A stretch of DNA of 34,981 bases from a virus, in UHGV virus genome UHGV-0117537, one strand, 5' to 3'. Below the pieces are notes generated by a model. That model did no database searches, had not been told where the DNA came from, and was given only the letters and a program-made list of their open reading frames with translations. The position numbers were made by a program, and so were the translations under genes. Of the stretch, positions 5,273 to 34,981 are shown piece by piece (positions within the stretch are counted from its first letter, which is position 1; each line of letters begins with the position of its first letter).

Positions 5273-5279
5273 GGTACTT

Positions 5280-5671: not shown

Positions 5672-5693
5672 TTGCGTTTTGGGGATATGAATT

Positions 5694-6035: not shown

Positions 6036-6096
6036 CCAACTAATGAAATTAATGGCGTAAACCCGCCGGGTATCCCTTTATCTAAATTCAGGAGAA

Positions 6097-10169: not shown

Positions 10170-10179
10170 GGTGACTTTT

Positions 10180-10413
10180 ATGCGCATTGAAATAATGATC
10201 GATAAAGAGCAGAAGATTAGCCAGTCTACCCTGGACGCCCTTGAATCCGAGCTTTACCGCAATCTGCGCCCCCTGTATCCCAAAACGGTAATTCGCATTC
10301 GCAAAGGTAGCTCTAACGGTGTGGAACTAACCGGACTGCAACTGGATGAAGAAAGAAAACAAGTGATGAAAATTATGCAGAAGGTGTGGGAGGACGACAG
10401 CTGGCTGCATTAA
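10180..10413 (+). CDS. DinI-family protein (Tum C-terminal-like / DinI-like)
   Basis: 77 aa from internal ATG of ORF 10108-10413; MRIEIMIDK...SWLH resembles DinI family (MRIEV... start, acidic C-terminus). Confidence 0.75.
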   Translation: MRIEIMIDKEQKISQSTLDALESELYRNLRPLYPKTVIRIRKGSSNGVELTGLQLDEERKQVMKIMQKVWEDDSWLH

Positions 10414-15994: not shown

Positions 15995-16038
15995 GGCACA
16001 AACCTACAGTCTTGAATGAAGGCTTTCCCCGCCTGCGG

Positions 16039-16060
16039 TTTGTGTGGTTGTCGGTACAAA
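16039..16060. promoter_or_regulatory. Late-promoter activator site TGT-N12-ACA in the divergent P/O intergenic region
   Basis: tgtgtggttgtcggtaca fits the Ogr/Delta-dependent late promoter element of P2-like phages; located between divergent P and O genes. Confidence 0.5.
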
Positions 16061-16136
16061 TACCGCGCATTGTTTCACTGCCCTCATCACCGCAACCATA
16101 AGGCTCCAGTAAGTTTTTTCTAACGGAGCACGGCTC

Positions 16137-16970: not shown

Positions 16971-16986
16971 TGGAGCACAAAACCTG

Positions 16987-18045: not shown

Positions 18046-18048
18046 TTC

Positions 18049-18699
18049 ATGAGCCTGAGTCCCGCACGGCAGCATCGCCTGCGCGTTCAGGCTGAACAGG
18101 CCGCCCGCGAGGGCGGCAGCGTTCGCCACGCGTCGGGCTATGACCTGATGCTGCTGCAACTGGCGGAAGACCGCCGCCGTCTCAAGGGCGTTCAGTCCAC
18201 GGTCAAAAAAGCGGAAATCAAGGTGGAGCTGCTGCCGAAGTACGCCGCCTGGGCGGAGGGTGTCCTGGCTGCCGGAGGCGTTCAACAGGATGACGTGCTG
18301 ATGTACGTGATGCTGTGGCGCATTGATGCCGGAGATTATGCCGGGGCGCTGGAGATCGGGCGTCACGCCCTGCGTCATGGCTGGGTGATGCCGTTAGGTA
18401 ACCGCAACGTGCAGACCGTGCTGGCAGAGGAAATGGCAGATGCAGCCCAGAGCGCAATGATTGCCGCCACCGGCTTTGATGCCGATCTGTTGCTGCAGAC
18501 GCTGGAGCTGACAGACGGTCTGGATATGCCGGACCAGTCACGGGCGCGTCTGCATAAAGCGATTGGCGCTGTCCTGAGTGAAAGCAACCCGGCTTCCGCC
18601 CTTAATCATCTCAACCATGCGTTACAGCTCGATCCCCGCTGTGGCGTGAAAAAAGACAAACAGCAGCTGGAGCGCAGACTGCGCAATGACAGCCGCTGA
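18049..18699 (+). CDS. M: Terminase small/endonuclease subunit (P2 gpM-like)
   Basis: 216 aa, position after N. Confidence 0.8.
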   Translation: MSLSPARQHRLRVQAEQAAREGGSVRHASGYDLMLLQLAEDRRRLKGVQSTVKKAEIKVELLPKYAAWAEGVLAAGGVQQDDVLMYVMLWRIDAGDYAGALEIGRHALRHGWVMPLGNRNVQTVLAEEMADAAQSAMIAATGFDADLLLQTLELTDGLDMPDQSRARLHKAIGAVLSESNPASALNHLNHALQLDPRCGVKKDKQQLERRLRNDSR

Positions 18700-18794
18700 C
18701 AGAACGTGCCCCCGCGCACGGGCGGCACGGGGTGGCGAAAGGCACTGCCACATCAAAACCCCGTCCACCGCCCTCTATTTCAGGAGAAAGCAGC

Positions 18795-19259
18795 ATGAAG
18801 TTTGTTGCGCCAGAACAGGCACCGGAACAGGCGGAAATCATCAGAAACACGCCGTTCTGGCCTGATGTGGACCTGTCGGAGTTTCGCAGTGTCATGCGCA
18901 CTGACGGCACGGTGACGCAGCCGCGTTTAAAGCAGGTTGCGCTGTCGGCAATTTCGGAGGTCAACGCAGAGCTGTATGAGTTTCGCAGACGCCAGCAGAT
19001 GCTGGGATATGCCTCGCTGGCAGAGGTTCCGGCGGAGCAGCTGGACGGCAAAAGTGAGCGCATTCAGCACTATTTCAACGCGGTTTACTGCTGGGCACGC
19101 GCCATGCTCAACGAACGATACCAGGACTATGACGCCACGGCATCCGGTGTGAAGCGAGGCGAAGAACTGGCAGAAGCCAGCGGTGATTTGTGGCGTGACG
19201 CCCGCTGGGCCATCAGCCGGGTGCAGGATGCGCCGCACTGCACAGTGGAGCTTATCTGA
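18795..19259 (+). CDS. L: Head completion/stabilisation protein (P2 gpL-like)
   Basis: 154 aa from internal ATG of ORF 18732-19259; position after M. Confidence 0.8.
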   Translation: MKFVAPEQAPEQAEIIRNTPFWPDVDLSEFRSVMRTDGTVTQPRLKQVALSAISEVNAELYEFRRRQQMLGYASLAEVPAEQLDGKSERIQHYFNAVYCWARAMLNERYQDYDATASGVKRGEELAEASGDLWRDARWAISRVQDAPHCTVELI

Positions 19260-19462
19260 TGAAAGTGCGTGCGCATCAGTATGACACGGTGGACGCGCTT
19301 TGCTGGCGTCATTACGGGCGCACGCAGGGTGTCACGGAGCAGGTACTGAAGGCAAATCCGGGGCTTGCCGAATACGGCCCCTTTTTACCTCACGGGATGC
19401 AGGTGGAGCTGCCGGACATTCCGACCACCACCACCGTGCAGACCGTCCAGCTATGGGACTGA
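19259..19462 (+). CDS. X: Tail protein X (P2 gpX-like)
   Basis: 67 aa, same length as P2 X, start overlaps L stop. Confidence 0.8.
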   Translation: MKVRAHQYDTVDALCWRHYGRTQGVTEQVLKANPGLAEYGPFLPHGMQVELPDIPTTTTVQTVQLWD

Positions 19463-19465
19463 ATT

Positions 19466-19681
19466 ATGACGCTTGAGCGAATCAGCGCCTTTATCACGTA
19501 TTGCATCGCCGTCGTGCTGGCCTGGCTGGGTGATTTGTCCATCAAGGATGCCTCAACGCTGGGCGGCCTGATGATTGGTGTGCTGATGCTGGCTATCAAC
19601 TGGTACTACAAACACAAAGCCTACCAGCTTCTGCGCGACGGGCAGATCTCGCGGGAGGACTATGAATCCATCAATCGTTAA
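19466..19681 (+). CDS. Small membrane protein, putative holin
   Basis: 71 aa with hydrophobic segments (ISAFITYCIAVVLAWLG, LGGLMIGVLMLAINWYY) immediately upstream of endolysin. Confidence 0.6.
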   Translation: MTLERISAFITYCIAVVLAWLGDLSIKDASTLGGLMIGVLMLAINWYYKHKAYQLLRDGQISREDYESINR

Positions 19682-20174
19682 ACGCTGCCTTGTCGGGACC
19701 GTGCTGGCTATTACTGCCACGCTGCCGGGTTTTCAGCAGCTTCACACCTCCGTGGAGGGGCTGAAACTGATTGCTGATTACGAAGGCTGTCGTCTGCAGC
19801 CGTATCAGTGCAGCGCGGGTGTCTGGACCGACGGCATTGGTAATACATCGGGCGTCATCCCGGGCAAAACCATTACGGAACGACAGGCAGCGGAAGGGCT
19901 GATCTCCAACGTGCTTCGTGTGGAGCGGGCGCTGGAAAGGTGTGTGAAGCAACAGCCGCCGCAGAAGGTGTATGACGCTGCGGTGTCGTTTGCCTTCAAC
20001 GTGGGAACGGGCAATGCCTGCAGTTCCACGCTGGTGAAATTGCTCAATCAGCGGCGCTGGGCGGATGCGTGCCGACAGTTGCCGCGCTGGGTTTATGTGA
20101 AAGGTGTTTTTAATCAGGGGCTGGATAACCGCCGTGCGCGGGAGATGGCCTGGTGTTTACAGGGAGCAAACTGA
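19662..20174 (+). CDS. Endolysin, lysozyme-like (GH24-type), possible signal-arrest-release N-terminus
   Basis: 170 aa; lysozyme catalytic region EGCRLQPYQCSAGVWTDGIGNT; hydrophobic N-terminus CLVGTVLAITATLPGF. Confidence 0.82.
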   Translation: MNPSIVKRCLVGTVLAITATLPGFQQLHTSVEGLKLIADYEGCRLQPYQCSAGVWTDGIGNTSGVIPGKTITERQAAEGLISNVLRVERALERCVKQQPPQKVYDAAVSFAFNVGTGNACSSTLVKLLNQRRWADACRQLPRWVYVKGVFNQGLDNRRAREMAWCLQGAN

Positions 20175-20175
20175 A

Positions 20176-20553
20176 ATGAAAAAGAAATTAATCAGCGGAC
20201 TGTTTCTGATGTTATGGATGGCGCTGTTAATCGCAGCAATGGTGTATCCGCAGGGGATCTTTCCGGTACTGGCAGCGTCCGGCGTTTGGGTAGCCTGTTT
20301 GCTGACATGGGCGGTAATTCCGGTAGCACTGGCTGCGTTAATTCAGAATGGCCCGCTCTGGCAGGAGTTAAGGGCATCTTTGCTGAAGACAATTACCCGA
20401 AAAGAAAACGTATTTATCAGTTGGGTGATGCGATTGCTGATTGTTGTAAGTCTCGCATGGACGGGGTGGGCTATTACCCTGGTCTTTTATCTACTGACCG
20501 TTATTGCCTTCTGGATCACCCGTAATCAGATGGCGCAACAGGTAGCAGCATGA
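20176..20553 (+). CDS. lysA: Lysis accessory membrane protein (P2 LysA-like)
   Basis: 125 aa from internal ATG of ORF 20104-20553; multiple predicted TM helices; position after endolysin. Confidence 0.65.
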   Translation: MKKKLISGLFLMLWMALLIAAMVYPQGIFPVLAASGVWVACLLTWAVIPVALAALIQNGPLWQELRASLLKTITRKENVFISWVMRLLIVVSLAWTGWAITLVFYLLTVIAFWITRNQMAQQVAA

Positions 20554-20978
20554 ACCGGTTGCTGCTGGTTGTGCTGGCGTTATTACTGGCGGCGCTGGGC
20601 TGGCAGACGTGGCGGCTGGCTGATGCCAGCCAGACCATCAGCACGCAGGCAAACGAGCTGCAGAGCAAAAGCCAGGCACTGGCAAAGAGCAACAGCCAGC
20701 TTATCAGCCTGTCCATTCTGACTGAAACCAATAACCGGGAGCAGGCGCGGCTCTATGCCGAAGCAGAACAGACCAGCGCACAGCTGAGACAACGACAACG
20801 CCGGATCGAGGAACTGAAACGTGAGAACGAGGATTTACGCCACTGGGCTGATACTCCTTTGCCTGCTGACATTATCCGGCTGCGGGAACGTCCGGCACTC
20901 ACCGGAGGTGCAGCTTACCGTCAGTGGTTGTCCGCGAGTGACGCCGTGTCGGCTGGAGCAGGCAGCACCGCGCACTAA
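20550..20978 (+). CDS. lysB: Inner-membrane spanin (Rz-like, P2 LysB-like)
   Basis: 142 aa; N-terminal TM (LLLVVLALLLAALGW) followed by coiled-coil-like region. Confidence 0.75.
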   Translation: MNRLLLVVLALLLAALGWQTWRLADASQTISTQANELQSKSQALAKSNSQLISLSILTETNNREQARLYAEAEQTSAQLRQRQRRIEELKRENEDLRHWADTPLPADIIRLRERPALTGGAAYRQWLSASDAVSAGAGSTAH

Positions 20979-21111
20979 CGGTGATCTGAATGCGTTGCTG
21001 GATGAAACGGAGGCCGCCTGGGCGGTCTGTGCAGACAAAGTGGACATGATTATTGCGTGTCAGGAGCGAAACAGTGAACAAACCACAATCCCTGCGCCAC
21101 GCCCTCAATAA
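20821..21111 (+). CDS. lysC: Outer-membrane lipoprotein spanin (Rz1-like, P2 LysC-like), overlapping lysB out of frame
   Basis: 96 aa with lipobox (LLTLSGCG); overlapped arrangement typical of spanin pairs. Confidence 0.7.
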   Translation: MRTRIYATGLILLCLLTLSGCGNVRHSPEVQLTVSGCPRVTPCRLEQAAPRTNGDLNALLDETEAAWAVCADKVDMIIACQERNSEQTTIPAPRPQ

Positions 21112-21505
21112 AGCGGTGCCTTATGTCCGCAATAACCCGGACAAACTGCATCTGTTTGTGGATAACGGTTCGCTGGTTGCCACGGGGGCCAGCTCCATGT
21201 CATGGGAGTACCGCTACACCCTGAACGTGGTGATTGAGGATTTCAGCGGCGACCAGAATCTGCTGATGGCCCCGGTTTTGCTGTGGCTGCGTGATAACCA
21301 GCCCGATGCCATCAATAACCCGGCGTTACGGGAAAAGCTATTCACCTTTGAGGTGGATATTCTGCGCAACGATGTCTGTGATATCAGCCTCAACCTGCAA
21401 CTGACGGAGCGTGTGCTGGTCAGCACTGACGGCAGTGTGTCGAGCGTTGAAGCTATAGCGGAACCTGATGAACCTGAAGAAATGTGGACGGTGAAACGTG
21501 GCTGA
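21053..21505 (+). CDS. R: Tail completion protein (P2 gpR-like); true start may lie slightly downstream
   Basis: 150-aa ORF following lysis cassette; overlaps lysC 3' end. Confidence 0.78.
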   Translation: MRVRSETVNKPQSLRHALNKAVPYVRNNPDKLHLFVDNGSLVATGASSMSWEYRYTLNVVIEDFSGDQNLLMAPVLLWLRDNQPDAINNPALREKLFTFEVDILRNDVCDISLNLQLTERVLVSTDGSVSSVEAIAEPDEPEEMWTVKRG

Positions 21506-21944
21506 ACTGCAGAAAGTGGACGACTGGCTGAGTGCCTTGCTGGCGAATCTGGAGCCAGCCGCAAGAAGCCGCATGATGCGCCAGCTGGCGCAGGAACTAC
21601 GCCGGACACAGCAGCAAAATATCAGAATGCAGCGCAATCCAGATGGCAGCAGTTATGAACCGCGACGGGTAACAGCACGCAGTAAAAAAGGCCGTATCAA
21701 ACGTCAGATGTTTGCAAAGCTGCGCACCACAAAATACCTGAAAACTTCCGCCAGCGCCGACTCTGCCAGCGTGCAGTTTGAAGGCAAGGTGCAGCGCATT
21801 GCCCGCGTTCACCATTACGGCCTGCGAGATCGCGTCAGTCGTAAGGGACCGGAGGTGCGTTACGCAGAGCGTCGCCTTCTGGGTGTAAATGATGATGTTG
21901 AGGCAATGACCCGCGACATGATTCTGCAATGGCTGGCGGGGTGA
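21498..21944 (+). CDS. S: Tail completion protein (P2 gpS-like)
   Basis: 148 aa, overlapping start with R stop. Confidence 0.82.
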   Translation: MAELQKVDDWLSALLANLEPAARSRMMRQLAQELRRTQQQNIRMQRNPDGSSYEPRRVTARSKKGRIKRQMFAKLRTTKYLKTSASADSASVQFEGKVQRIARVHHYGLRDRVSRKGPEVRYAERRLLGVNDDVEAMTRDMILQWLAG

Positions 21945-21948
21945 TCTT

Positions 21949-21966
21949 TGTATCAGCACTGATACA
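21949..21966. promoter_or_regulatory. Late-promoter activator site TGT-N12-ACA upstream of V (P_V-like)
   Basis: tgtatcagcactgataca is embedded in a perfect 20-bp palindrome ttgtatcagcactgatacaa in the S-V intergenic region. Confidence 0.6.
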
Positions 21967-22012
21967 AGTTGCAGCACTGCCGCCTTTCTTCCCCTGATGG
22001 CAACCTTTCCCT

Positions 22013-22591
22013 ATGAACGCACAATTAACCGAAATCATGCGCCTTATCACCAACCTGATCCGCACAGGGGTAGTCACCGAAGTGGACAGGGAAAACTGGC
22101 TTTGCCGGGTGAAAACGGGCGAGCTTGAAACCAACTGGATCAGCTGGCTGACGCTGCGTGCCGGGAATGCCCGTACATGGTGGCGACCATCGGAAGGTGA
22201 GCAGGTGGTGCTGCTGAGTCTGGGCGGCAATCTGGAAACCGCCTTTGCGCTGCCCGCTGTCTATTCGAATCAGTTCGCACCACCGTCGACGTCGGCGGAC
22301 GCCTGCGTGACAGAACATCCTGACGGTGGCTGGTTTGAATACGAACCCGCCACCGGGCGCTGGTATGTCAGGGGCATCAAATCAATGGTCATTGAGGCTG
22401 CTGACAACATCACCATGAAAACCAGTGAGTTTGTACTGGAGGCTGACCGCACGCGCATTAACAGCGAAGTGGTGATCAATGGTGGCGTTATCCAGGGCGG
22501 CGGAGCGATGAGTTCTAACGGGATCGTGGTTGATGCGCATCAGCATACTGGCGTCCTGAAAGGCGGCGATACAACCGGAGGCCCGGTATGA
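22013..22591 (+). CDS. V: Baseplate spike/assembly protein (P2 gpV-like)
   Basis: 192 aa; position and overlap pattern with W. Confidence 0.88.
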   Translation: MNAQLTEIMRLITNLIRTGVVTEVDRENWLCRVKTGELETNWISWLTLRAGNARTWWRPSEGEQVVLLSLGGNLETAFALPAVYSNQFAPPSTSADACVTEHPDGGWFEYEPATGRWYVRGIKSMVIEAADNITMKTSEFVLEADRTRINSEVVINGGVIQGGGAMSSNGIVVDAHQHTGVLKGGDTTGGPV

Positions 22592-22947
22592 CGCTTTATA
22601 GCGGGATGAACAATACCAGCGGCAAAGTCATTACTGATATTGATCATCTGCGCCAGTCGGTGCGGGACATTCTGCTGACACCGCAGGGTAGCCGTATTGC
22701 CCGCCGGGAATATGGTTCCCTGCTGTCGGCACTGATAGATCAGCCACAAAATCCGGCATTACGCCTGCAGGTCATGTCGGCAGTGTATGTGGCGCTGAGT
22801 CGCTGGGAGCCACGGTTGACGCTGGATTCCATCACCATCAACAGCAATTTTGACGGTTCAATGGTGGTGGAGCTGACCGGGCGGCGGAATAACGGTGTGC
22901 CTGTGTCCCTTTCCGTATCAACAGGAGCAGAGAATGGCAGTGATTGA
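22588..22947 (+). CDS. W: Baseplate protein (P2 gpW-like, gp25-like)
   Basis: 119 aa, start overlaps V stop. Confidence 0.88.
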   Translation: MTLYSGMNNTSGKVITDIDHLRQSVRDILLTPQGSRIARREYGSLLSALIDQPQNPALRLQVMSAVYVALSRWEPRLTLDSITINSNFDGSMVVELTGRRNNGVPVSLSVSTGAENGSD

Positions 22948-23842
22948 CCTTTCGCAGTTGCCTGCACCGCAGATTGTGGATGTGCCGGACTTTGAGACAC
23001 TGCTTGCCGAACGCAAGGCAGAATTTGTGGCGCTTCATCCGAAAGATGAGCAGGAAGCAGTGATCCGCACGCTGGAACTGGAATCTGAACCCGCCACTAA
23101 ATTGTTGCAGGAGAACGCTTACCGTGAGTTGCTTCTGCGCCAGCGCATTAACGAAGCCGCGCAGGCGGTGATGGTGGCTTACGCGATGGGCGGCGATCTT
23201 GACCAGCTCGCTGCCAACTACAACGTGACACGCCTGACGGTGACGCCTGCTGATAATGATGCTGTGCCGCCCGTTGCAGCTGTGATGGAAAGCGATGAAG
23301 CGTTGCGCCTGCGTGTGCCTGCAGCCTTTGAAGGGCTTTCTGTTGCGGGGCCAACTGCAGCTTATGAATTTCATGCCCGAAGCGCCGACGGTCGGGTGGC
23401 GGATGCCAGTGCAACCAGCCCGGCACCTGCAGAGGTGGTGCTGGCTGTCCTTAGCCGCGAAGGCGATGGAACTGCAGAAAAAGACCTGCTGGACGTGGTG
23501 GAAAAAGCTCTGAACAGTGAGAACGTCCGCCCGGTGGCTGACCGTCTTACGGTTCGCAGCGCAGAAATCATCCCGTATCGCGTGGAAGCCACCATTTTTC
23601 TCTATCCTGGACCGGAAGCAGAGCCGGTAATGGCAGCGGCAAAAGCCAGCCTGCAGAAGTACATCGCCAGTCAGACGCGTCTTGGTCGGGATATTCGCCG
23701 TAGCGCCATCTTTGCCGCCCTGCATGTTGAGGGGGTGCAGCGTGTGGAGCTGGCTTCTCCTCTGGCGGATGTGGTCCTGAACAAAACACAGGCGGCATCA
23801 TGTACGCAGTGGAGCGTAACCAACGGAGGAACGGATGAATAG
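22934..23842 (+). CDS. J: Baseplate assembly protein (P2 gpJ-like)
   Basis: ATG 13 codons inside ORF 22895-23842 (MAVIDLSQLPAPQ...); about 302 aa. Confidence 0.85.
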   Translation: MAVIDLSQLPAPQIVDVPDFETLLAERKAEFVALHPKDEQEAVIRTLELESEPATKLLQENAYRELLLRQRINEAAQAVMVAYAMGGDLDQLAANYNVTRLTVTPADNDAVPPVAAVMESDEALRLRVPAAFEGLSVAGPTAAYEFHARSADGRVADASATSPAPAEVVLAVLSREGDGTAEKDLLDVVEKALNSENVRPVADRLTVRSAEIIPYRVEATIFLYPGPEAEPVMAAAKASLQKYIASQTRLGRDIRRSAIFAALHVEGVQRVELASPLADVVLNKTQAASCTQWSVTNGGTDE

Positions 23843-24440
23843 TCTGCTGCCACCGGGTTCAACACCACTGGAGCGCCGACTGGCGCAAACCTGCAGCGGG
23901 ATTTCTGATCTGCAGGTGCCGCTTCGTGATTTGTGGAATCCGGCAACCTGTCCGGTCAGTTTCCTGCCTTATCTCGCCTGGGCGTTCTCTGTGGATCGCT
24001 GGGACGAGGGCTGGACAGAAAGCGTCAAGCGCCAGGTGGTGAAGGATGCTTTTTATATTCATCAGCATAAAGGGACCACCAGTGCCGTGCGGCGGGTGGT
24101 GGAGCCGTTCGGATTCCTGATCCGCATTATTGAGTGGTGGCAGACCGGAGAAACACCGGGCACGTTTCGCCTGGATATCGGCGTGCAGGACCAGGGCATC
24201 ACTGAAGATACCTATCTGGAACTTGAGCGACTGATAAGCGATGCCAAACCATGTAGCCGCCACATGATCGGCATGTCCATCAATCTGCAGACCAGCGGCC
24301 CGCATTGGGTGGGAGCCGCCAGCTATCTTGGCGAAGAAATCACGATCTATCCGTATATCAACGAAACGATTATTTCCGGTGGCACCGCGCATGAAGGCGG
24401 GGCGGTCCATGTTATTGACACAATGAGAGTGAATCCATGA
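23835..24440 (+). CDS. I: Baseplate assembly protein (P2 gpI-like)
   Basis: 201 aa, overlapping J stop and H start. Confidence 0.85.
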   Translation: MNSLLPPGSTPLERRLAQTCSGISDLQVPLRDLWNPATCPVSFLPYLAWAFSVDRWDEGWTESVKRQVVKDAFYIHQHKGTTSAVRRVVEPFGFLIRIIEWWQTGETPGTFRLDIGVQDQGITEDTYLELERLISDAKPCSRHMIGMSINLQTSGPHWVGAASYLGEEITIYPYINETIISGGTAHEGGAVHVIDTMRVNP

Positions 24441-25819
24441 GCACAAAATTTTATACCCTGCTGACGGATATTGGCGCGGCGAAACTTGCCAGCGCCGCCG
24501 CGCTCGGTGTGCCGCTAAAAATTACCCATATGGCGGTGGGCGATGGCGGTGGAGTATTGCCAACGCCGGACGCAAAGCAGACGGCACTGGTAAATGAGAA
24601 ACGCCGGGCTGCGCTGAATATGCTTTATATCGACCCGCAGAACAGCAGCCAGATTATTGCCGAACAGGTGATCCCTGAAAACGAGGGCGGTTGGTGGATA
24701 CGTGAAGTGGGCCTGTTTGATGAGTCAGGGGCATTGATTGCCGTGGGCAACTGCCCGGAAAGCTATAAGCCGCAACTGGCTGAAGGTAGCGGGCGCACTC
24801 AGACCGTGCGCATGGTGCTGATTACCAGCAGCACGGACAATATCACCCTGAAAATCGACCCTGCTGTAGTGCTGGCAACCCGCAAGTATGTGGATGACAA
24901 GGCACTGGAGCTGAAGGTGTACGCGGATGATCAGATGGCAAAACATCTTGCCGCACCGGACCCGCATTCACAGTACGCGCCAAAAGCCAGCCCGACATTT
25001 ACCGGAACCCCCAAAGCGCCAACGCCAGCGGCGGGGAATAATACCACGCAGGTTGCGACCACTGCGTTTGTACAGGCGGCACTGACGGCCCTTATTAATG
25101 GTGCGCCAGCCACGCTGGACACGCTGAAAGAAATAGCCGCAGCCATTAACAATGATCCGAATTTCAGTACCACCATTAACAATGCGCTGGCACTAAAAGC
25201 ACCGTTGTCGAGTCCGGCACTCACCGGAACGCCAACAGCCCCCACGGCGGCGCAGTCGGTCAACAATACACAGATTGCCACTACGGCTTTTGTGAAATCG
25301 GCGATTGCAGGAATGGTGGGTTCTGCGCCTGCTGCACTGGATACACTGAACGAACTGGCGGCGGCACTGGGGAATGATCCGAACTTTGCCACGACAATGC
25401 TTAATGCGCTGGCAGGTAAACAACCGCTGGACAATACGCTTACCAATTTGAGTGGAAAGGATGTAGCTGGTCTTCTCACATACCTTGGTTTGGGAGAAGC
25501 GGCAAAACGGAATGTGGGAACAGGGGAAAATCAGATACCTGATATGTCAGCTTATTCATCAGGATCTGGCTGGCAAAAATTGCCTGATGGTTCAATTGAA
25601 CAGTGGGGAAGAATTAATTTCCCGAATAACGCCGCGGCGGTATCTACAAATGTGACTTTCACCATTCCTTTTACGCAGGAGCCAGACGTAGTGATTGTAT
25701 ATGACGGCGGTTTTGGTGGTGGGAATATGTGGGGCGCAACTAACTGGACGAAAACAGGTTTCGTTGCTCATTGTAACTATGGCTTTGAAGGTGGAGCCTT
25801 CTACGCGAAAGGGCGTTAA
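24437..25819 (+). CDS. H: Tail fibre protein (P2 gpH-like) with variable C-terminus (current orientation)
   Basis: 460 aa; N-terminus MSTKFYTLLTDIGAAKLA typical of P2 H; internal tandem repeats (TTAFV..GAPA.LDTL.E.AAA..NDPNF.TT.NALA.K.PL); C-terminal part lies inside the invertible segment. Confidence 0.88.
   Translation: MSTKFYTLLTDIGAAKLASAAALGVPLKITHMAVGDGGGVLPTPDAKQTALVNEKRRAALNMLYIDPQNSSQIIAEQVIPENEGGWWIREVGLFDESGALIAVGNCPESYKPQLAEGSGRTQTVRMVLITSSTDNITLKIDPAVVLATRKYVDDKALELKVYADDQMAKHLAAPDPHSQYAPKASPTFTGTPKAPTPAAGNNTTQVATTAFVQAALTALINGAPATLDTLKEIAAAINNDPNFSTTINNALALKAPLSSPALTGTPTAPTAAQSVNNTQIATTAFVKSAIAGMVGSAPAALDTLNELAAALGNDPNFATTMLNALAGKQPLDNTLTNLSGKDVAGLLTYLGLGEAAKRNVGTGENQIPDMSAYSSGSGWQKLPDGSIEQWGRINFPNNAAAVSTNVTFTIPFTQEPDVVIVYDGGFGGGNMWGATNWTKTGFVAHCNYGFEGGAFYAKGR
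25473..25498. repeat. Hix/gix-like recombination site (left boundary of invertible segment) inside tail fibre gene
   Basis: ttctcacatacc-tt-ggtttgggagaa resembles 26-bp Hin/Gin crossover sites; encodes LLTYLGLGE at the constant/variable junction. Confidence 0.55.
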
Positions 25820-25821
25820 TT

Positions 25822-26262
25822 ATGAAATATTTGTATGTTGATAATCTGGCGTACCCTTATGCCCTCCAGTCTGTTTACGCTGCAAAAGGCCAATGGCCCG
25901 AAGGTAAAGGCGTGGATATAGACGAAGCTATTTTCAGGGAATATTTCCATGATACGCCGCCTGACGGTAAGTACAGAATTACCGGAGACGATGGAATGCC
26001 AGCATGGGCAGATGTTCCACCGCCAACACGTGAAGAACAAATTGCATCAGTCGAAACTAAAAAGCAGCAATTGATTAATCAGGCCAACGATTATATGAAC
26101 AGTAGACAATGGGCTGGTAAAGCGGCGATTGGTCGCCTGAAAGGTGAGGAACTGGCGCAATATAATTTGTGGCTGGATTATCTGTACGCACTGGAACTGG
26201 TCGATACTTCCGGTGCGCCAGATATTGAATGGCCTACGCCTCCGGCAGTTCAGGCCAGATGA
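25822..26262 (+). CDS. G: Tail fibre assembly chaperone (P2 gpG/Tfa-like)
   Basis: 146 aa; N-terminal MKYLYVDNLAYPY and C-terminal GAPDIEWPTPP typical of Tfa proteins. Confidence 0.8.
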   Translation: MKYLYVDNLAYPYALQSVYAAKGQWPEGKGVDIDEAIFREYFHDTPPDGKYRITGDDGMPAWADVPPPTREEQIASVETKKQQLINQANDYMNSRQWAGKAAIGRLKGEELAQYNLWLDYLYALELVDTSGAPDIEWPTPPAVQAR

Positions 26263-26836
26263 CGTCCGGCGCTGTGCTGGTATCTGTTGCCGTCACCACG
26301 TCAATGTAATCCAGCACAGTGTTAAGGCGGGTTGTTTCTGCCTGCGTCAGCTTCCGTCCGGCCTGTAATTTCAGTTGAATCAGACTGATGGAGGCCATTG
26401 CAGTATCAATCAGCGACTGGCGCTGTGCTTCTGCTGCATCTACTGCTGCGCCGTGCTGTGCCTCAGTATCGGTCACCCATTTCTCACCATCCCATTTATC
26501 GTATGGCGTTAACGGGGCGATAGTGGTTGTATTTTCAGGGTAATCACCCGGAGTTGTGATTTCTTTGGCTTCTCCCGTTTCGGTGTTATAGACGATTTCA
26601 CCGCGATGGTCTGGCACATATTCCCATGAGTTAAAATCTGCAGAACGGCAGATAGCATAACCAGCCTTATATGTGCCTGGTGAATCTAAACAGGAATATG
26701 CCGGGATACCAACACCAACGGCAAGATATTCATTTGAAGTGGAAATATATTCCCGTATTTCACCATCATAGTTATAGACGGTAATATTCCCTGCCTTCGT
26801 GGCAATAATCTCGCTATTTAATACAGCGTTATCCAT
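26234..26836 (-). CDS. Alternative tail fibre assembly chaperone (Tfa'), inverted orientation
   Basis: 200 aa on opposite strand; C-terminus TAPDVIWPELPEA parallels the Tfa C-terminus on + strand. Confidence 0.7.
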   Translation of the reverse strand: MDNAVLNSEIIATKAGNITVYNYDGEIREYISTSNEYLAVGVGIPAYSCLDSPGTYKAGYAICRSADFNSWEYVPDHRGEIVYNTETGEAKEITTPGDYPENTTTIAPLTPYDKWDGEKWVTDTEAQHGAAVDAAEAQRQSLIDTAMASISLIQLKLQAGRKLTQAETTRLNTVLDYIDVVTATDTSTAPDVIWPELPEA

Positions 26837-27329
26837 TATGCAGCCCTCACAATATAATTAAAGGCAATGTTACGTGGGCGGTTCTCATTTGCGGTTGGGA
26901 CAACGGCTGAAGCATTAAAATTCGCATACAGGGAGCGTTGATACCCGGATGCTGATGCACCACTTAATGCGGGAGCTTTTGACTCCGAAGCCGAAAAGGC
27001 CCCTGACACGTATCCTAATAACCCTTGTGAATCGCCAATTGAACTGTAGCCAACCACCCCGGTAATGTTTCGGATAGCATCTCCTTGTGCTGAAAGCAGA
27101 GTTCGCCCACTATCCACTCCCTTTCCACCATCCCAGCCACGAATAAACTCACCGCGTAAATCAGGCAATTTTAACGTCGGGTAAGCCTTTGCCAGATTAG
27201 GGTAATCTTCAGCAGAAAAAGCCGCACCGTTGCATTTCAGCCAGCCTGTTGGCGGTGTGGCTGAAGGCCATGGAACAGGCACACCAACAGGCAGCGCAGA
27301 GCCTTCCCCTAAACCAACGTTTAAGAAAA
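26836..27329 (-). CDS. Alternative tail fibre C-terminal (variable) segment, promoterless until inversion
   Basis: Minus-strand ORF 26836-27357; shares LGLGE junction (FLNVGLGEGSALP) with H at the crossover site; the 5' end of the ORF upstream of the site is not expected to be translated. Confidence 0.6.
27304..27329. repeat. Hix/gix-like recombination site (right boundary of invertible segment), inverted relative to 25473-25498
   Basis: ttcccctaaacc-aa-cgtttaagaaaa; its reverse complement (..ggtttaggggaa) matches the right half of the site in H (ggtttgggagaa). Confidence 0.55.
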
Positions 27330-27384
27330 TGCAGAGAAAATGGCTAACTGGCATCATCCCCGGTTTTTATTCAGGGGATTGATC

Positions 27385-27951
27385 ATGCTTATTGGCTATG
27401 TACGCGTGTCAACAAATGACCAGAACACCGATTTGCAACGTAATGCACTGAACTGTGCGGGATGTGAGCGGATTTTTGAGGACAAAATCAGTGGCACTAA
27501 GTCCGACAGACCGGGACTGAAAAAACTGCTCAGGATACTATCGGCAGGAGACACGCTGGTTGTCTGGAAGCTGGACAGGTTGGGGCGCAGTATGCGGCAT
27601 CTTGTTACGCTGATAGAAGAGTTACGCCAGCGTGGTGTGAATTTCAGAAGCCTGACTGACAGTATTGATACCAGTACCCCAATGGGCCGTTTCTTTTTTC
27701 ATGTCATGGGTGCCCTGGCTGAAATGGAACGCGAACTGATAGTTGAACGTACCAGGGCAGGGCTGGCTGCAGCTCGTGCCAAAGGCAGAGTAGGTGGACG
27801 CCGTCCTAAGTTGACCACCGAACAGTGGGCACAGATTGGGCGTTTACTCGAGGCCGGAGAATCAAGACAGCGTATTGCACTGATTTTTGATGTAGGCGTT
27901 TCTACCATTTATAGAAAATTTCCGGCAAATAAGATCAATGAATCCCCCTGA
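27385..27951 (+). CDS. Serine recombinase, DNA invertase of the Hin/Gin/Pin/Cin family
   Basis: 188 aa from internal ATG of ORF 27340-27951; N-terminal catalytic motif MLIGYVRVSTNDQNTDLQ with active-site serine, C-terminal HTH. Confidence 0.9.
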   Translation: MLIGYVRVSTNDQNTDLQRNALNCAGCERIFEDKISGTKSDRPGLKKLLRILSAGDTLVVWKLDRLGRSMRHLVTLIEELRQRGVNFRSLTDSIDTSTPMGRFFFHVMGALAEMERELIVERTRAGLAAARAKGRVGGRRPKLTTEQWAQIGRLLEAGESRQRIALIFDVGVSTIYRKFPANKINESP

Positions 27952-27999
27952 ATCAGCATTATGTTGATTATCCCTGCAAGCAGACAAATACCGTTATTT

Positions 28000-28017
28000 T
28001 GTGTGAATAACGACACA
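28000..28017. promoter_or_regulatory. Late-promoter activator site TGT-N12-ACA upstream of FI (P_F-like)
   Basis: tgtgtgaataacgacaca about 75 bp upstream of the sheath gene start. Confidence 0.5.
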
Positions 28018-28093
28018 ACTGCGCTTAGCTGTTTGTCAGGCACAATCACTTCAACATAGGGCGAAGCCTAATCCAATCAGGAGGTTCGCCACT

Positions 28094-29266
28094 ATGGCTC
28101 AGGATTACCACCACGGGGTGCGCGTTGTTGAAGTCAACGAAGGCACCCGATCTATTACCACGGTGAGCACCGCCATCGTGGGTATGGTCTGCACGGGCGA
28201 TGATGCCGATGCAAAAATGTTTCCTCTTAATAAACCCGTGCTGATCACTGATGTGCTGACTGCCAGCGGTAAAGCGGGTGAGTCAGGTACTCTGGCCCGT
28301 TCGCTGGATGCCATCGCTGACCAGGCAAAACCCGTGACCATTGTTGTGCGTGTGCCGCAGGGTGAAACGGAAGACGAAACCACGACCAATATCATCGGCG
28401 CAGTGACTGCTGAAGGTAAAAAAACAGGTATGAAAGCCCTGTTATCTGCCCAGTCACAGCTCGGCGTTAAACCGCGCATTCTCGGCGTGCCAGGCCACGA
28501 CACCAAGGCGGTAGCTACTGAGTTGCTGAGCGTGGCGCAAAGCCTGCGTGGATTTGCTTACCTGTCAGCGTATGGCTGCAAGACAGTGCAGGAGGCGATC
28601 ACTTACCGCGAAAACTTCAGCCAGCGCGAAGGGATGCTGATCTGGCCTGACTTTACTGGCTGGGACACGGTGCTGAATGCCGAAGCAACGGCATATGCCA
28701 CCGCCCGTGCGCTTGGTCTGCGCGCCAAAATTGACGAGCAGACCGGATGGCACAAAAGCCTGTCCAACGTGGGCGTGAACGGTGTCACCGGAATTTCTGC
28801 AGATGTGTTCTGGGATCTGCAGGACCCGGCAACCGATGCAGGTCTGCTGAACCAGAACGACGTCACCACGCTTGTGCGTAAAGACGGTTTCCGCTTCTGG
28901 GGTTCCCGCTGCCTGAGTGATGACCCGCTCTTTGCCTTCGAAAACTACACCCGCACGGCGCAGGTGCTGATGGACACGATGGCAGAAGCACACATGTGGG
29001 CGGTGGATAAACCGCTTAACCCGTCGCTGGCCCGCGACATTATCGAAGGTATCCGCGCCAAAATGCGCAGCCTGGTCAGTCAGGGCTATCTCATTGGTGG
29101 TGATTGCTGGCTGGATGAGTCGGTGAACGACAAAGACACGCTGAAAGCCGGAAAACTCACCATCGACTACGACTACACGCCAGTGCCGCCACTTGAAAAC
29201 CTGATGCTGCGTCAGCGCATCACCGATCAGTACCTGGTTAATTTCGCCAGCCAGGTCAGCGCGTAA
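28094..29266 (+). CDS. FI: Tail sheath protein (P2 gpFI-like)
   Basis: 390 aa, N-terminus [11 protein letters not shown]; size matches P2 FI. Confidence 0.93.
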
Positions 29267-29275
29267 GGGGACAAC

Positions 29276-29791
29276 ATGGCTTTACCACGCAAATTAAAAC
29301 ACCTGAACCTGTTTAACGACGGGAACAACTGGCAGGGGATCGTTGAGTCGCTGACGCTGCCGAAATTCACCCGCAAATATGAGAAGTATCGCGGCGGCGG
29401 AATGCCGGGTGCGGTGGATGTGGATCTGGGGCTTGATGACAGTGCGCTGGACACAGAATTTTCCATTGGTGGTACTGAATTGCTGCTGTTTAAACAGATG
29501 GGTAAAGCCACGGTGGATGGCATCCAGCTGCGCTTTACCGGCTCTATTCAGCGTGACGATACCGGGGAAGTGCAGGCCGTGGAGCTTGTCGTGCGTGGAC
29601 GTCACAAAGAAGTGGATTCCGGCGAGTGGAAGACGGGCGAAAGCAACACCACCAAAGTGACCAGTACCAACAGCTACGCGAAGCTGACCATCAATGGTGA
29701 GGTGCTCTATGAAGTGGACCTTATCAACATGGTGGAAATTGTGGACGGTGTGGACCTGATGGAAGCGCACCGCAACGCCCTCGGCCTCTGA
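29276..29791 (+). CDS. FII: Tail tube protein (P2 gpFII-like)
   Basis: 171 aa, directly after sheath gene. Confidence 0.93.
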   Translation: MALPRKLKHLNLFNDGNNWQGIVESLTLPKFTRKYEKYRGGGMPGAVDVDLGLDDSALDTEFSIGGTELLLFKQMGKATVDGIQLRFTGSIQRDDTGEVQAVELVVRGRHKEVDSGEWKTGESNTTKVTSTNSYAKLTINGEVLYEVDLINMVEIVDGVDLMEAHRNALGL

Positions 29792-29845
29792 TATATCTGA
29801 ACGGCGCGGGATACCGCGCCAGAACCCAATTGACAGGACAGCAAA

Positions 29846-30148
29846 ATGAGCGATAAGCAGACTGAAAAGACCATTCAACTGGATACCCCCATCAAGCGCG
29901 GTAAAACAGAAATCACCGAAATTGTGCTGCGTAAACCGCAGTCCGGTGCGCTGCGCGGTACACGCCTGCAGGCCATTATGGATATGGATGTAAACGCGAT
30001 GATGACCGTGATCCCCCGCATCTCCAGTCCGGCACTGACTGCACAGGAAATTGCAGAGATGGACCCGGCAGATCTCACTGCCATGTCGGTTGAGGTTGTC
30101 ACTTTTTTGTTGAAGAAGTCGGTGCTTGCCGGTTTACCGACAGCCTGA
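29846..30148 (+). CDS. E: Tail assembly chaperone (P2 gpE-like)
   Basis: 100 aa between tube and tape measure genes. Confidence 0.82.
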   Translation: MSDKQTEKTIQLDTPIKRGKTEITEIVLRKPQSGALRGTRLQAIMDMDVNAMMTVIPRISSPALTAQEIAEMDPADLTAMSVEVVTFLLKKSVLAGLPTA

Positions 30149-30282
30149 CGGTTGACGATCTGGTGGCAGATATCGCCACCATTTTTCACTGGCCGCCATC
30201 CGTTACTGACGTTATGCCGCTGACCGAAGTGCTGGAATGGCGGTATAAAGCGATTCAGAGAAGCGGGGCCAACGATGAGTGA
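29846..30282 (+). CDS. Tail assembly chaperone E+E' made by programmed -1 frameshift at ttttttg (about 30103-30109)
   Basis: Slippery heptamer inside E; the -1 frame stays open to TGA at 30280-30282, overlapping the T start, as in P2 E/E' and lambda G/GT. Confidence 0.55.
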
Positions 30283-33200
30283 TAACAACCTGCGTCTGCA
30301 GGTCATTCTTAATGCGGTTGACAAGCTCACCCGCCCATTTCGATCTGCGCAGGCCAGTTCAAGAGAACTGGCTGCTGCTGTCAAAAAATCCCGCGATGCA
30401 ATAAAGCAGCTTGATCAGGCCGGGAGCAGTCTGGACAGCTTCCGAAAGCTGCAGGCAGAAAATCAGAAATTAGGCGACAGGCTGAACTATGCCCGCCAGC
30501 GTGCAAATTTGCTCAGTCAGGAACTGGGAGCGATGGGGCCGCCTTCGCAACGTCAGGTTGTTGCTCTGGGCCGTCAACGGCTGGCTGTTCAGCGCCTGGA
30601 AGAACGCCAGAAAAAGCTGCAGCAGCAGACGGCGCTTGTGCGTGCTGAACTGTACCGGGCGGGAATTTCTGCGAAAGACGATGCGGGAGCAACTGCCCGT
30701 TTAGCCCGTGAAACATCACGTTATAACCAGGAACTTTCGAAACAGGAGGCGCGGCTGAAGCGACTGGGGGAAGCTCAGCGCAGGATGAATGCAGCGCGTG
30801 CCAGTTATGCCCGTTCGCTGGAGGTGCGTGATCGTATTGCAGGTGCCGGAGCCACCACCACGGCTGCAGGGCTGGCAATGGGTGCGCCAGTGATGGCGGC
30901 AGTAAAAAGCTATACCAGCATGGAAGATGCTATGAAAGGTGTGGCAAAGCAGGTCAATGGTCTGCGTGACGATAATGGCAACCGCACTGCACGTTTTTAT
31001 GAAATGCAGGATGCCATCAAGGCTGCCAGCGAACAGTTGCCGATGGAAAACGGTGCGGTGGACTTCGCTGCACTGGTTGAAGGTGGTGCGCGCATGAACG
31101 TCGCAAACCCTGACGACAGCTGGGAAGATCAGAAACGTGACCTGCTGGCCTTCGCCAGTACGGCAGCAAAGGCGGCAACAGCCTTTGAGCTGCCAGCGGA
31201 TGAACTGTCAGAAAGTCTGGGGAAAATCGCCCAGCTCTACAAAATCCCCACCCGCAATATTGAACAGCTCGGTGATGCGCTGAACTATCTGGATGATAAC
31301 GCCATGTCGAAAGGGGCAGACATCATTGATGTGATGCAACGTCTGGGCGGTGTGGCTGACCGTCTGGATTATCGTAAAGCGGCGGCGCTGGGTTCCACCT
31401 TCCTGACACTGGGCGCTGCGCCAGAGGTTGCAGCCAGTGCAGCAAACGCGATGGTGCGTGAATTGTCCATTGCCACCATGCAAAGCAAGAGTTTCTTTGA
31501 AGGGATGAATCTGCTGAAACTCAATCCTGAAGTGATTGAAAAGCAGATGACGAAGGATGCGATGGGAACCATCCAGCGCGTGCTGGAGAAGGTAAACGCG
31601 CTGCCGCAGGACAAGCGCCTGTCTGCCATGACTATGTTGTTTGGTAAAGAGTTTGGCGATGACGCGGCGAAACTGGCAAACAACCTGCCGGAACTGCAGC
31701 GTCAGTTAAAACTGACAGCGGGCAATGATGCGCTTGGCTCCATGCAGAAAGAATCCGACATTAACAAGGATTCACTTTCTGCGCAGTGGTTGCTGGTCAA
31801 AACCGGAGCGCAGAACACCTTCAGCAGCCTGGGCGAAACGCTGCGCCAGCCGCTGATGGATATTCTGTACACGGTGAAAAGCGTCACGGGGGCGTTGCGT
31901 CGCTGGGTGGAAGCTAACCCGGAACTGACAGGCACACTGATGAAAGCATCGGCTGTTGTGGCTGCGGTTACCGTCGGCCTCGGCACCTTAGCGGTGGCGC
32001 TGGCTGCAGTGCTGGGGCCGCTGGCAGTGATCCGTCTGGGATTCTCTGTGTTGGGTATCAAAACGTTATCTTCCGTTACGGCAGCAGTAACTCGAACCAG
32101 CAGCGCGTTGTCCTGGCTGGCTGGCGCACCACTGGCACTGCTGCGACGCGGGCTTGCTTCATCGGGCAACGCCGCAGGTTTACTTACTGCGCCGTTGTCG
32201 TCTTTGCGCCGCACGGCATCACTGACGGGAAATGTCCTGAAAACTGTAGCAGGTGCGCCGGTTGCACTTTTGCGGTCTGGATTATCCGGTTTACGTGCTG
32301 TTGCTGTGATGTTTATGAATCCTCTGGCGGTACTGCGCGGTGGACTGGCCGCCGCAGGCACGGTGCTGCGAGTACTGGCATCTGGTCCACTGGCGATGCT
32401 GCGCGTTGCCCTGTATGCCATATCTGGTCTGTTAGGTGCTCTGCTCAGTCCGATAGGTCTTGTGGTTACTGCACTGGCGGGCGTGGCGCTGGTTGTCTGG
32501 AAATACTGGCAACCCATCACCGCATTTCTCGGTGGCGTGGTGGAAGGATTCAAAGCGGCGGCAGGTCCCATCAGTGCAGCGTTCGAACCGCTTAAGCCCG
32601 TGTTCCAGTGGATTGGCGACAAAGTGCAGGCGCTGTGGGGCTGGTTTACTGATCTGCTGACGCCCGTTAAGTCGACCTCTGCCGAACTGCAGAGCGCAGC
32701 GGCAATGGGGCGGCGATTCGGGGAGGCACTGGCGGAAGGGCTGAATATGGTCATGCATCCGCTGGACTCCCTGAAATCCGGCGTTTCCTGGTTGCTGGAG
32801 AAGCTCGGCATTGTCAGTAAAGAGGCCGCAAAGGCAAAACTGCCGGAAAGCGTGACGCGTCAGCAACCTGCGACGGTGAATGCAGACGGTAAAGTGATGA
32901 TGCCATCGGGTGGTTTTCCATCATGGGGATATGGCTTTGCGGGGATGTATGACAGCGGCGGCTATATCCCGCGCGGGCAGTTTGGCATCGTCGGTGAAAA
33001 CGGGCCGGAAATTGTTAACGGCCCGGCAAATGTGACCAGCCGGAGAAATACAGCTGCACTGGCTGCCGTTGTTGCCGGAATGATGGGCGTTGCTGCCGCG
33101 CCAGCAGAGCTTCCACCGTTGCACCCCTTGGCACTTCCCGCGAAAGGTGGAGAAGCAATTGTGAGTCGCGCAGCCACTGTGCCACTCGTTCAACGGATTG

Positions 33201-33352
33201 AGACACCGACGCAGATCATCATTCAGACGCAGCCAGGACAAAGTGCGCAGGATATTGCGCGGGAGGTGGCACGCCAGCTTGATGAACGTGAACGCAGGCT
33301 GAAGGCAAAAGCCAGGAGTAACTACAGCGATCAGGGGGGATACGACGCATGA
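30275..33352 (+). CDS. T: Tail tape measure protein (P2 gpT-like)
   Basis: 1025 aa; coiled-coil N-terminal part, Ala/Leu/Gly-rich repeated hydrophobic segment, position after E/E'. Confidence 0.9.
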   Translation: MSDNNLRLQVILNAVDKLTRPFRSAQASSRELAAAVKKSRDAIKQLDQAGSSLDSFRKLQAENQKLGDRLNYARQRANLLSQELGAMGPPSQRQVVALGRQRLAVQRLEERQKKLQQQTALVRAELYRAGISAKDDAGATARLARETSRYNQELSKQEARLKRLGEAQRRMNAARASYARSLEVRDRIAGAGATTTAAGLAMGAPVMAAVKSYTSMEDAMKGVAKQVNGLRDDNGNRTARFYEMQDAIKAASEQLPMENGAVDFAALVEGGARMNVANPDDSWEDQKRDLLAFASTAAKAATAFELPADELSESLGKIAQLYKIPTRNIEQLGDALNYLDDNAMSKGADIIDVMQRLGGVADRLDYRKAAALGSTFLTLGAAPEVAASAANAMVRELSIATMQSKSFFEGMNLLKLNPEVIEKQMTKDAMGTIQRVLEKVNALPQDKRLSAMTMLFGKEFGDDAAKLANNLPELQRQLKLTAGNDALGSMQKESDINKDSLSAQWLLVKTGAQNTFSSLGETLRQPLMDILYTVKSVTGALRRWVEANPELTGTLMKASAVVAAVTVGLGTLAVALAAVLGPLAVIRLGFSVLGIKTLSSVTAAVTRTSSALSWLAGAPLALLRRGLASSGNAAGLLTAPLSSLRRTASLTGNVLKTVAGAPVALLRSGLSGLRAVAVMFMNPLAVLRGGLAAAGTVLRVLASGPLAMLRVALYAISGLLGALLSPIGLVVTALAGVALVVWKYWQPITAFLGGVVEGFKAAAGPISAAFEPLKPVFQWIGDKVQALWGWFTDLLTPVKSTSAELQSAAAMGRRFGEALAEGLNMVMHPLDSLKSGVSWLLEKLGIVSKEAAKAKLPESVTRQQPATVNADGKVMMPSGGFPSWGYGFAGMYDSGGYIPRGQFGIVGENGPEIVNGPANVTSRRNTAALAAVVAGMMGVAAAPAELPPLHPLALPAKGGEAIVSRAATVPLVQRIETPTQIIIQTQPGQSAQDIAREVARQLDERERRLKAKARSNYSDQGGYDA

Positions 33353-33834
33353 TGATGGTGCTGGGATTGTACGTGTTTATGCTGCGCACCGTTCCGTATC
33401 AGGAACTGCAGTATCAACGCAGCTGGCGACATGCGGCAAACAGTCGGGTAAACCGACGTCCGTCCACGCAGTTTCTGGGACCGGAAAACGACATGCTGAC
33501 GCTTTCCGGTGTTCTTATGCCGGAAATAACAGGCGGCAGGCTGTCGTTGCTGGCACTGGAGCAGATGGCAGAACAGGGGAAAGCATGGCCCCTGATTGAA
33601 GGCAGCGGCACGATTTACGGCATGTATGTGATTGAGGGACTGAATCAGACTAAAACGGAGTTTTTCCGCGACGGTATGCCGCGCCGGATTGAGTTCACCC
33701 TGTCGCTCAAACGAGTGGATGAATCCCTGTCCGATATGTTCGGTGATCTCAGTGCGCAACTGAATAATCTGCAGGACACGGCAACGTCTGCCTTAAGCGA
33801 TATCAGTAAAACGGTGGGAGGGCTGCTGTCGTGA
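33349..33834 (+). CDS. U: Tail protein (P2 gpU-like)
   Basis: 161 aa, overlapping T stop. Confidence 0.88.
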   Translation: MMMVLGLYVFMLRTVPYQELQYQRSWRHAANSRVNRRPSTQFLGPENDMLTLSGVLMPEITGGRLSLLALEQMAEQGKAWPLIEGSGTIYGMYVIEGLNQTKTEFFRDGMPRRIEFTLSLKRVDESLSDMFGDLSAQLNNLQDTATSALSDISKTVGGLLS

Positions 33835-34931: not shown

Positions 34932-34981
34932 TTCTTCGCAATGGAGAACTTTTAAGTTTGCAAAATGGAATAATGCGGTAT

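Follow-up and report, generated by a model that had tools for sequence, protein, structure and literature searches.

We describe here a tail-fibre switch in a P2-like prophage of Escherichia coli, carried on the virus genome UHGV-0117537 (34,981 nucleotides, the whole of which was analysed and is called the window below). Two 26-bp crossover sites enclose a segment that encodes two alternative fibre C-termini, each with a Tfa chaperone, and a serine DNA invertase is encoded beside it. We consider it very probable that this is an active, Fis-dependent switch of the Din family, which swaps the receptor-binding fibre tip along with its chaperone and most likely alters the range of bacteria to which the phage can bind. 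The anatomy of the locus, an intact enzyme, an in-frame alternative fibre and natural isomers with core-precise exchange were all demonstrated. The parts of the switch, in the order in which they lie in the window, are as follows.

24437-25484, plus strand: constant N-terminal part of the fibre, P2 H-like (PF12571 Phage_tail_fib over residues 1-150, E=4.7e-65)

25473-25498: left crossover site, pix/gix-like, 26 bp, inside the fibre coding sequence; TTCTCACATACCTTGGTTTGGGAGAA, with its centre TT at 25485-25486

25485-27317: invertible segment, 1833 bp; 25485-27320 aligns in reverse to the related prophage L002 (introduced below), with both flanks collinear

25487-25819, plus strand: variable C-terminus A, currently fused (PF21882 Gp53-like_C, residues 381-449), 106 residues after LGLGE

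25822-26262, plus strand: Tfa-A chaperone (PF02413 Caudo_TAP, E=5.9e-30), the one expressed in the present orientation

26234-26836, minus strand: Tfa-B chaperone, TfaE-like (PF02413, E=4.5e-32), silent in the present orientation

26836-27315, minus strand: variable C-terminus B (PF07484 Collar, E=1.5e-15), promoterless and lacking an N-terminus in the present orientation

27304-27329: right crossover site, 26 bp; TTCCCCTAAACCAACGTTTAAGAAAA, with its centre AA at 27316-27317 (plus strand), starting 81 bp upstream of the invertase ATG

27385-27951, plus strand: serine DNA invertase of the Pin/Cin/Gin family, 188 residues, outside the invertible segment and directly downstream of it

27403-27474, plus strand: predicted enhancer (sis), inside the 5' part of the invertase gene, by homology to the P1 cin enhancer

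Inversion by exchange at the 2-bp core occurs in natural isomers of this prophage. When complete E. coli genomes were searched with the sequence inverted in silico, the inverted form matched NZ_OZ547176 (E. coli AF16, locus L002) end to end and in one piece at 98.7% identity. Compared with the window as given, L002 is collinear over 13296-25499 and 27303-34981, with 25485-27320 reversed at 99.9% identity. The left site of L002 is made up of the left outer half of the window's left site, the central TT, and the reverse complement of the inner half of the window's right site, and its right site is the reciprocal combination. The half-sites differ from each other, and they are swapped in L002 in just the way expected of exchange at the central dinucleotide. 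A second case lies within a single assembly, GCF_001874485.1 (E. coli O25b:H4), in which the P2-like element is present twice, once in the chromosome (NZ_CP015085) and once as a separate 29.5-kb linear record labelled extrachromosomal (NZ_CP015088). Over the region fetched, the two copies, L003 and L001 respectively, agree at 99.95-100% identity once the inversion of the 1863-bp fibre segment is set aside, and both isomers were therefore present in one sequenced culture. L001 probably represents phage that was excised or replicating, or else a variant in the population that was assembled separately; its sheath gene is annotated as frameshifted.

The pattern extends well beyond these strains. 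We took 80 related loci from IMG/VR, with invertases 85-99% identical in protein to that of the window, out of at least 598 relatives. Exactly two sites, with TT and AA centres, are present in 58 of the 80, and in each of these 58 the AA site starts 81 bp upstream of the invertase ATG and the TT site lies 1.1-1.9 kb further upstream. More generally, a site stands at a fixed distance from the invertase start in nearly all of the IMG/VR loci with enough flanking sequence (about 60). Where cassettes are shared with the window, both orientations are about equally frequent among the related loci. In three contigs (L030, L034 and L051) the number of hix-like sites is three or four, and the constant fibre part and the invertase lie on opposite strands; these contigs could be multi-site variants, could hold prophages in tandem or in duplicate, or could have been assembled across inversion isomers. 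Junction probes run against E. coli genomes found the constant-A junction in 10 and the constant-B junction in 408, but the Collar-domain start of variant B probably recurs in many different cassettes, which confounds the comparison, and the counts should not be read as a switching bias.

Inverted repeats can in themselves give rise to inversions and to misassemblies, and it should be considered whether the database isomers merely reflect RecA-dependent recombination between short inverted repeats, or assembly error. We give this explanation hardly any credence. The repeats measure only 26 bp and differ at 7 positions, a length and a divergence at which homologous recombination would not be efficient, and the exchange point sits at the central dinucleotide, with a clean swap of non-identical half-sites. 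In addition, a dedicated invertase adjoins the segment and the same pattern is seen in many independent assemblies.

The crossover sites themselves were found without ambiguity. A search of all 34,981 bp with a degenerate hix/gix consensus, allowing up to three mismatches, returned exactly two matches, the left and right sites, where 0.01 would be expected by chance from dinucleotide shuffles; a looser, score-based scan of the window again returned these two only. They lie in inverted orientation, share the central TT when the right site is read as its reverse complement, and closely resemble the gix, cix and e14 sites taken from reference records. A generic inverted-repeat search of the window did not list them because the exact seeds that they have in common are short. 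The original prediction had placed two inverted 26-bp hix/gix-like sites at precisely these positions, and the consensus scan, the score scan and the shared central dinucleotide all agree with it. It had also labelled the system as of Min/Gin/Cin type, and here a distinction is needed. A multi-site arrangement of the shufflon or Min kind was rejected, the window holding only two sites at either threshold. With two crossover sites only, the switch belongs to the Gin/Cin/Pin type and not to the Min type of multiple inversion, so that Min fits at the level of the family alone.

Between the sites lie two convergent cassettes, each consisting of a fibre C-terminus and a Tfa chaperone gene, with the 3' end of Tfa-B overlapping Tfa-A by 29 bp. 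In the present orientation the fibre open reading frame (ORF) runs over 24437-25819 on the plus strand and encodes 460 residues, beginning with a P2-type N-terminal domain and ending with a gp53-like C-terminal domain; its constant part is collinear with relatives as far as the left site. The crossover TT falls in codon L350. Both inner half-sites encode GLGE and both fusions therefore read ...TYLGLGE..., which bears out the earlier claim that the two fibre variants have the junction peptide LGLGE in common. Inverting 25485-27317 in silico replaces the 460-residue fibre with an uninterrupted, in-frame fibre of 509 residues. The ORFs and their Pfam domains thus agree with the original description of a plus-strand C-terminus plus Tfa facing a minus-strand alternative pair, and with both cassettes intact and the 509-residue fusion in frame, its proposal that inversion would switch the tip together with the chaperone holds for the gene structure.

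The two tips have little in common. No significant similarity was detected when variants A and B were compared, and Tfa-A resembles Tfa-B over 68 residues only, near the C-termini. As the tips are unrelated in sequence, it is likely, judging from this divergence, that they recognise different receptors. A tblastn comparison of the variable tips with S/S' of Mu, S/S' of P1 and the last 248 codons of P2 H found no similarity, and no NCBIfam family scored above its cut-off for the invertase, fibre or Tfa proteins. Upstream of the left site, fibre residues 220-340 (25096-25456) match the constant part of P1 S beside cixR (L004, 9747-10109) at 84% protein identity, and the matching P1 stretch lies in the region of the P1 b1/b2 repeats. 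Given this identity, the conserved module reaches past the 26-bp site into the fibre shaft.

The enzyme needed for inversion appears to be in working order. We place its start at ATG 27385 (MLIGYVRVST), with an AGGGGA Shine-Dalgarno sequence ahead of it, and its end at 27951 as given. The longer mechanical ORF, starting at ATG 27340, is an unlikely reading. The protein contains a Resolvase domain (PF00239, E=3.4e-53) and an HTH_7 domain (PF02796, E=1.3e-15), and matches the Mu Gin structures 3UJ3 and 4M6F over its full length (E=2e-92). It shares 84.8% of its residues with PinE of e14; the figures for P1 Cin and Mu Gin are 77.4% and 73.9%. Residues Y5, R7, S9 (the nucleophile), R42, D64, R65 and R68 are the same in the window invertase, Gin, Cin and PinE. 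H106 and M114, positions that are changed in Fis-independent mutants of Gin, are wild type here; the M114V change is visible in the Gin structure 3UJ3. McLean et al. (PMC3798978) described contacts to Fis and the enhancer that are unique to DNA invertases, namely Q151, R154 and L155 of Hin together with basic residues at 47, 48 and 51, and the counterparts Q150, R153, L154, K46, K47 and R50 are all kept in the window invertase. A Hin/Gin/Pin-family invertase directly downstream of the segment had been proposed, with alignment to Gin, Cin and Pin as the check; the domains and the structural match confirm the family, and the alignment, at 74-85% identity, shows the catalytic S9 to be intact and not mutated.

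A recombinational enhancer in the 5' part of the invertase gene is a reasonable inference from homology. In the P1 record AF234173 the Cin enhancer is annotated at nt 19-90 of cin, and the corresponding stretch of the window, 27403-27474, is identical without gaps at 55/72 positions to cin, 53/72 to gin and 64/72 to pinE. It contains two Fis-like 15-mers, TGTCAACAAATGACC (27407-27421) and GTGCGGGATGTGAGC (27455-27469), kept at equal positions in cin, gin and pinE, whose centres are 48 bp apart. A spacing of 48 bp between the two Fis sites of the enhancer was reportedly given by Johnson and colleagues in 1987. Between the 15-mers are the motifs ATTTG and TAATG, which resemble the ATTTA and TAATG segments of the hin enhancer, the latter described as 65 bp in size (PMC3798978). 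The predicted enhancer is also coding sequence, and constraint was therefore tested at synonymous sites, using 73 unique invertase genes. The search for a Fis-dependent enhancer that the original prediction had called for showed homology to the annotated P1 element; the dip in synonymous variation there was too slight to be significant.

Several points weigh against an active switch, and they are best considered together. The window is a single sequence in one orientation, and flipping was seen in its relatives and not directly in its own copy. The crossover sites are less alike than gixL and gixR, agreeing at 19/26 positions, and the right site is the poorer palindrome, with 16/26 positions self-complementary. 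A promoter scan of 25400-28150 found no sigma-70-like promoter for the invertase above the shuffled background; a terminator scan of the same interval likewise found nothing above background. Synonymous variability in codons 7-30 of the invertase gene is 0.29 against 0.35 in the rest of the gene (one-sided p=0.10, not significant), and the predicted enhancer is not separable from protein-coding constraint. The unequal sites, the missing promoter-like sequence and the enhancer test would all suit a frozen relic, that is, a locus of invertible ancestry whose present copy does not switch at a meaningful rate, owing to weak sites, lack of invertase expression or decay of the enhancer, and in which only the fused tip matters. 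We regard such a relic as very unlikely. The invertase ORF is intact, with all the catalytic and Fis-contact residues kept, and the silent cassette is likewise intact and in frame. Moreover, near-identical prophages occur in both orientations, even within one assembly, and the site upstream of the invertase is maintained at its fixed distance in about 60 related loci.

Under the preferred interpretation of an active switch, the 188-residue invertase would bind the two 26-bp sites as dimers, and with host Fis bound to the enhancer in the 5' part of the invertase gene an invertasome would be formed. The enzyme would then cut each site at its central 2-bp overlap (25485-86 in the left one, 27316-17 in the right), and rotation of one pair of subunits by 180 degrees, followed by religation, would flip the 1833-bp segment. 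The segment would have no promoter of its own, the constant 5' part of the fibre gene, outside it, being transcribed with the late baseplate/fibre operon; the constant part would therefore continue in frame into C-terminus A, with Tfa-A behind it, or into C-terminus B, with Tfa-B behind it. A lysogen population would thereby release two kinds of virion with different tips, each assembled by its cognate chaperone, and the whole would act as a bet-hedging host-range switch. Within this scheme, the dependence on Fis and the enhancer, the switching rate, the mode of invertase expression and the difference in host range are what we infer.

The setting of the switch bears on whom it would serve. The window is a piece of E. 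coli chromosome and, to judge from the sequence, the prophage sits between rcdA and ybjL: the left end of the window is rcdA (ybjK), at 99.8% identity, and the homologous prophage in L002 stops before ybjL. This attachment site is taken in about a fifth of complete E. coli genomes, 1101/5426 of which match at least 80% of the junction of rcdA with the integrase gene. A domain search of the window proteins identified the element as P2-like (Peduoviridae), with Tail_P2_I, Phage_GPA and sheath domains detected, and it is 95-99% collinear with the annotated P2-family prophage in L002. Its genes include int, a 186-type CI, Dam, GPA, portal, terminase, the P2-family capsid module and lysis genes. 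The tail genes are in the order V-W-J-I-fibre, followed by FI, FII, E, T, U and D, with baseplate, sheath, tube and tape-measure genes present. On this gene content the prophage appears complete. Reference P2 has H, G, Z/fun and FI at this place and no invertase, in line with the original remark that classical P2 lacks such a segment, and by gene order the switch would occupy the position of the P2 Z/fun hotspot, after the fibre genes and before FI. The GC content (guanine plus cytosine) is about 0.56 in the flanking tail genes and 0.44-0.50 over the invertible segment and the invertase gene; taken over 25450-28100 it is 0.42-0.50, with the flanking tail genes at about 0.56-0.58. The low value is consistent with a horizontally acquired module.

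It is conceivable that the switch mainly serves the host, with fibre-like proteins altering the cell surface and blocking the adsorption of other phages, as with PinQ and PinR, recombinases of cryptic prophages. Such a role has been reported for PinQ-driven inversion of e14/Qin DNA (PMC12529663); the invertase and cassette B of the window are closely related to PinE, TfaE and StfE, and the prophage also bears defence cargo. We nevertheless think this unlikely to be the main function. The prophage appears complete, unlike e14, and its fibre would therefore be part of a functional virion module, in which a change of tip would directly alter adsorption. It should be added that a host-serving role and a host-range role are not mutually exclusive.

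Defence-related and other accessory genes lie outside the tail region. A gene at 1814-3802 (minus strand) encodes a 662-residue AAA_15/OLD-family ATPase, with AriA (1e-23) and Old (1e-17) as its top PADLOC matches, flanked by the integrase gene (688-1743, minus strand) and the CI repressor gene (3823-4413, minus strand); it is likely to be anti-phage defence cargo in an int-CI hotspot. At 11416-13155 (plus strand) there is a 579-residue GmrSD-type (DUF262/DUF1524) type IV restriction enzyme (PADLOC HEC-06, 1e-92); its gene, with replication gene A on one side and the portal gene on the other, occupies a hotspot that in P2 holds tin/old. L002 has other cargo at the same place, comprising a PD-(D/E)XK nuclease, two hypothetical proteins and ParA. 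A Dam-type N6-adenine methyltransferase gene (6500-7417, plus strand) lies directly upstream of replication gene A, and a gene for a DinI-like protein (10108-10413, plus strand) downstream of it.

The cassette pair has also been found in an unrelated prophage. Window 25462-27322 is 99.5% identical to positions 5008-6867 of a locus (L087) in E. coli C31 (NZ_CP102061) that belongs to a different prophage backbone, with the Mu-like tail order X-D-V-W-J-I-fibre, situated beside pflD/frwD. The invertase of the C31 prophage is 67% identical in protein, and the constant part of its fibre gene and its invertase gene are about 70% identical or less in DNA. The near-identity of the two cassette pairs does not extend past the two crossover points; this suggests that cassettes were exchanged as units delimited by Din sites. 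Horizontal exchange of fibre cassettes at Din sites is an old idea. We would put forward, as a tentative suggestion and with more doubt than confidence, that the 26-bp sites have a second role, as portable junctions at which unrelated prophages swap cassettes; if true, this would be a refinement of the old idea and not a new principle. The sharing could reflect intermolecular exchange catalysed by the invertase between co-resident prophages, or, alternatively, ordinary recombination followed by selection.

The practical consequences are mainly ones of annotation and prediction. The true fibre gene has two alternative 3' ends, and the minus-strand ORF annotated as a phage tail protein is a silent half-gene and not an independent gene. 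Any prediction of host range for this prophage family must cover both tips. Assemblies of such strains may collapse the isomers or split them, as in the O25b:H4 assembly. Scientifically, the switch adds nothing beyond what is established from Mu, P1, e14, Fels-2 and the P2-like prophages of enteropathogenic E. coli (EPEC).

The system is already known: the present locus is one more example of a familiar type, and public genomes contain copies nearly identical to it. Its closest characterised relative, from sequence comparison, is the P segment of e14 with PinE, in a cryptic prophage of E. coli K-12. The e14 layout (stfP/tfaP - tfaE/stfE - pinE) matches that of the window, with a constant part, a left site, convergent cassettes, a right site and the invertase outside, and its sites, CTCTCGAAAACCTTGGTTTGGGAGAA (left) and TTCTCCCAAACCAACGTTTATGAAAA, are nearly identical to those described here. 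Identity is 89% between TfaE and Tfa-B, 55% between the StfE C-terminus and variant B, and 51% between TfaP and Tfa-A. The two differ in that e14 is defective, with a truncated tail module, whereas the switch in the window is part of an apparently complete P2-like prophage, and in that the tip of cassette A, with its gp53-like C domain, is not that of e14. The G segment of Mu with Gin and the C segment of P1 with Cin operate on the same principle as proposed here, being two-site switches dependent on Fis and an enhancer that alternate S/U with S'/U'. In both, as in the window, the invertase gene is not part of the segment, and the enhancer falls within the 5' part of that gene, a position that in the window is predicted. 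The segment is shorter here (1.8 kb, compared with 3 kb for Mu G and 4.2 kb for P1 C), and the backbone is P2-like, unlike that of Mu or P1.

Other members of the family differ in the number and use of their sites. The Min system of p15B has, like the window, a Din-family invertase, 26-bp sites and an assortment of fibre C-termini, but with six crossover sites and many isomers, against the two sites found here. The Hin/H system of Salmonella shares the invertase family and the 26-bp sites, and its Fis enhancer lies some 100 bp away from one of them (PMC3798978). Hin, however, lies inside its own segment and flips a promoter, whereas the invertase in the window lies outside and the 3' end of a gene is replaced in frame.

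Within the P2 family itself there are ample precedents. EPEC strain E2348/69 has two invertible P2-like fibre loci, one simple and the other a three-site shufflon, both orientations coexisting in clonal cultures (Goldberg et al. 2014, PMC4272514). In the shufflon, the four variants were all present together in the population, the inversions being shown by sequencing and by polymerase chain reaction (PMC4272514); that locus has three sites and four variants, where the window has two of each. Fels-2 of Salmonella carries a pin homologue and an inverted tail-fibre segment (PMC7953296), and its invertase Fin, as cited in PMC12529663, is able to invert the H segment of Salmonella. A DNA invertase with inversion of adjacent genes is also described as frequent in the P2 Z/fun hotspot (2024 preprint, bioRxiv 10.1101/2024.10.15.618418). 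These EPEC, Fels-2 and Z/fun-hotspot invertases share phage family, position and principle with the switch in the window, the likeness to EPEC and Fels-2 being drawn from their published descriptions.

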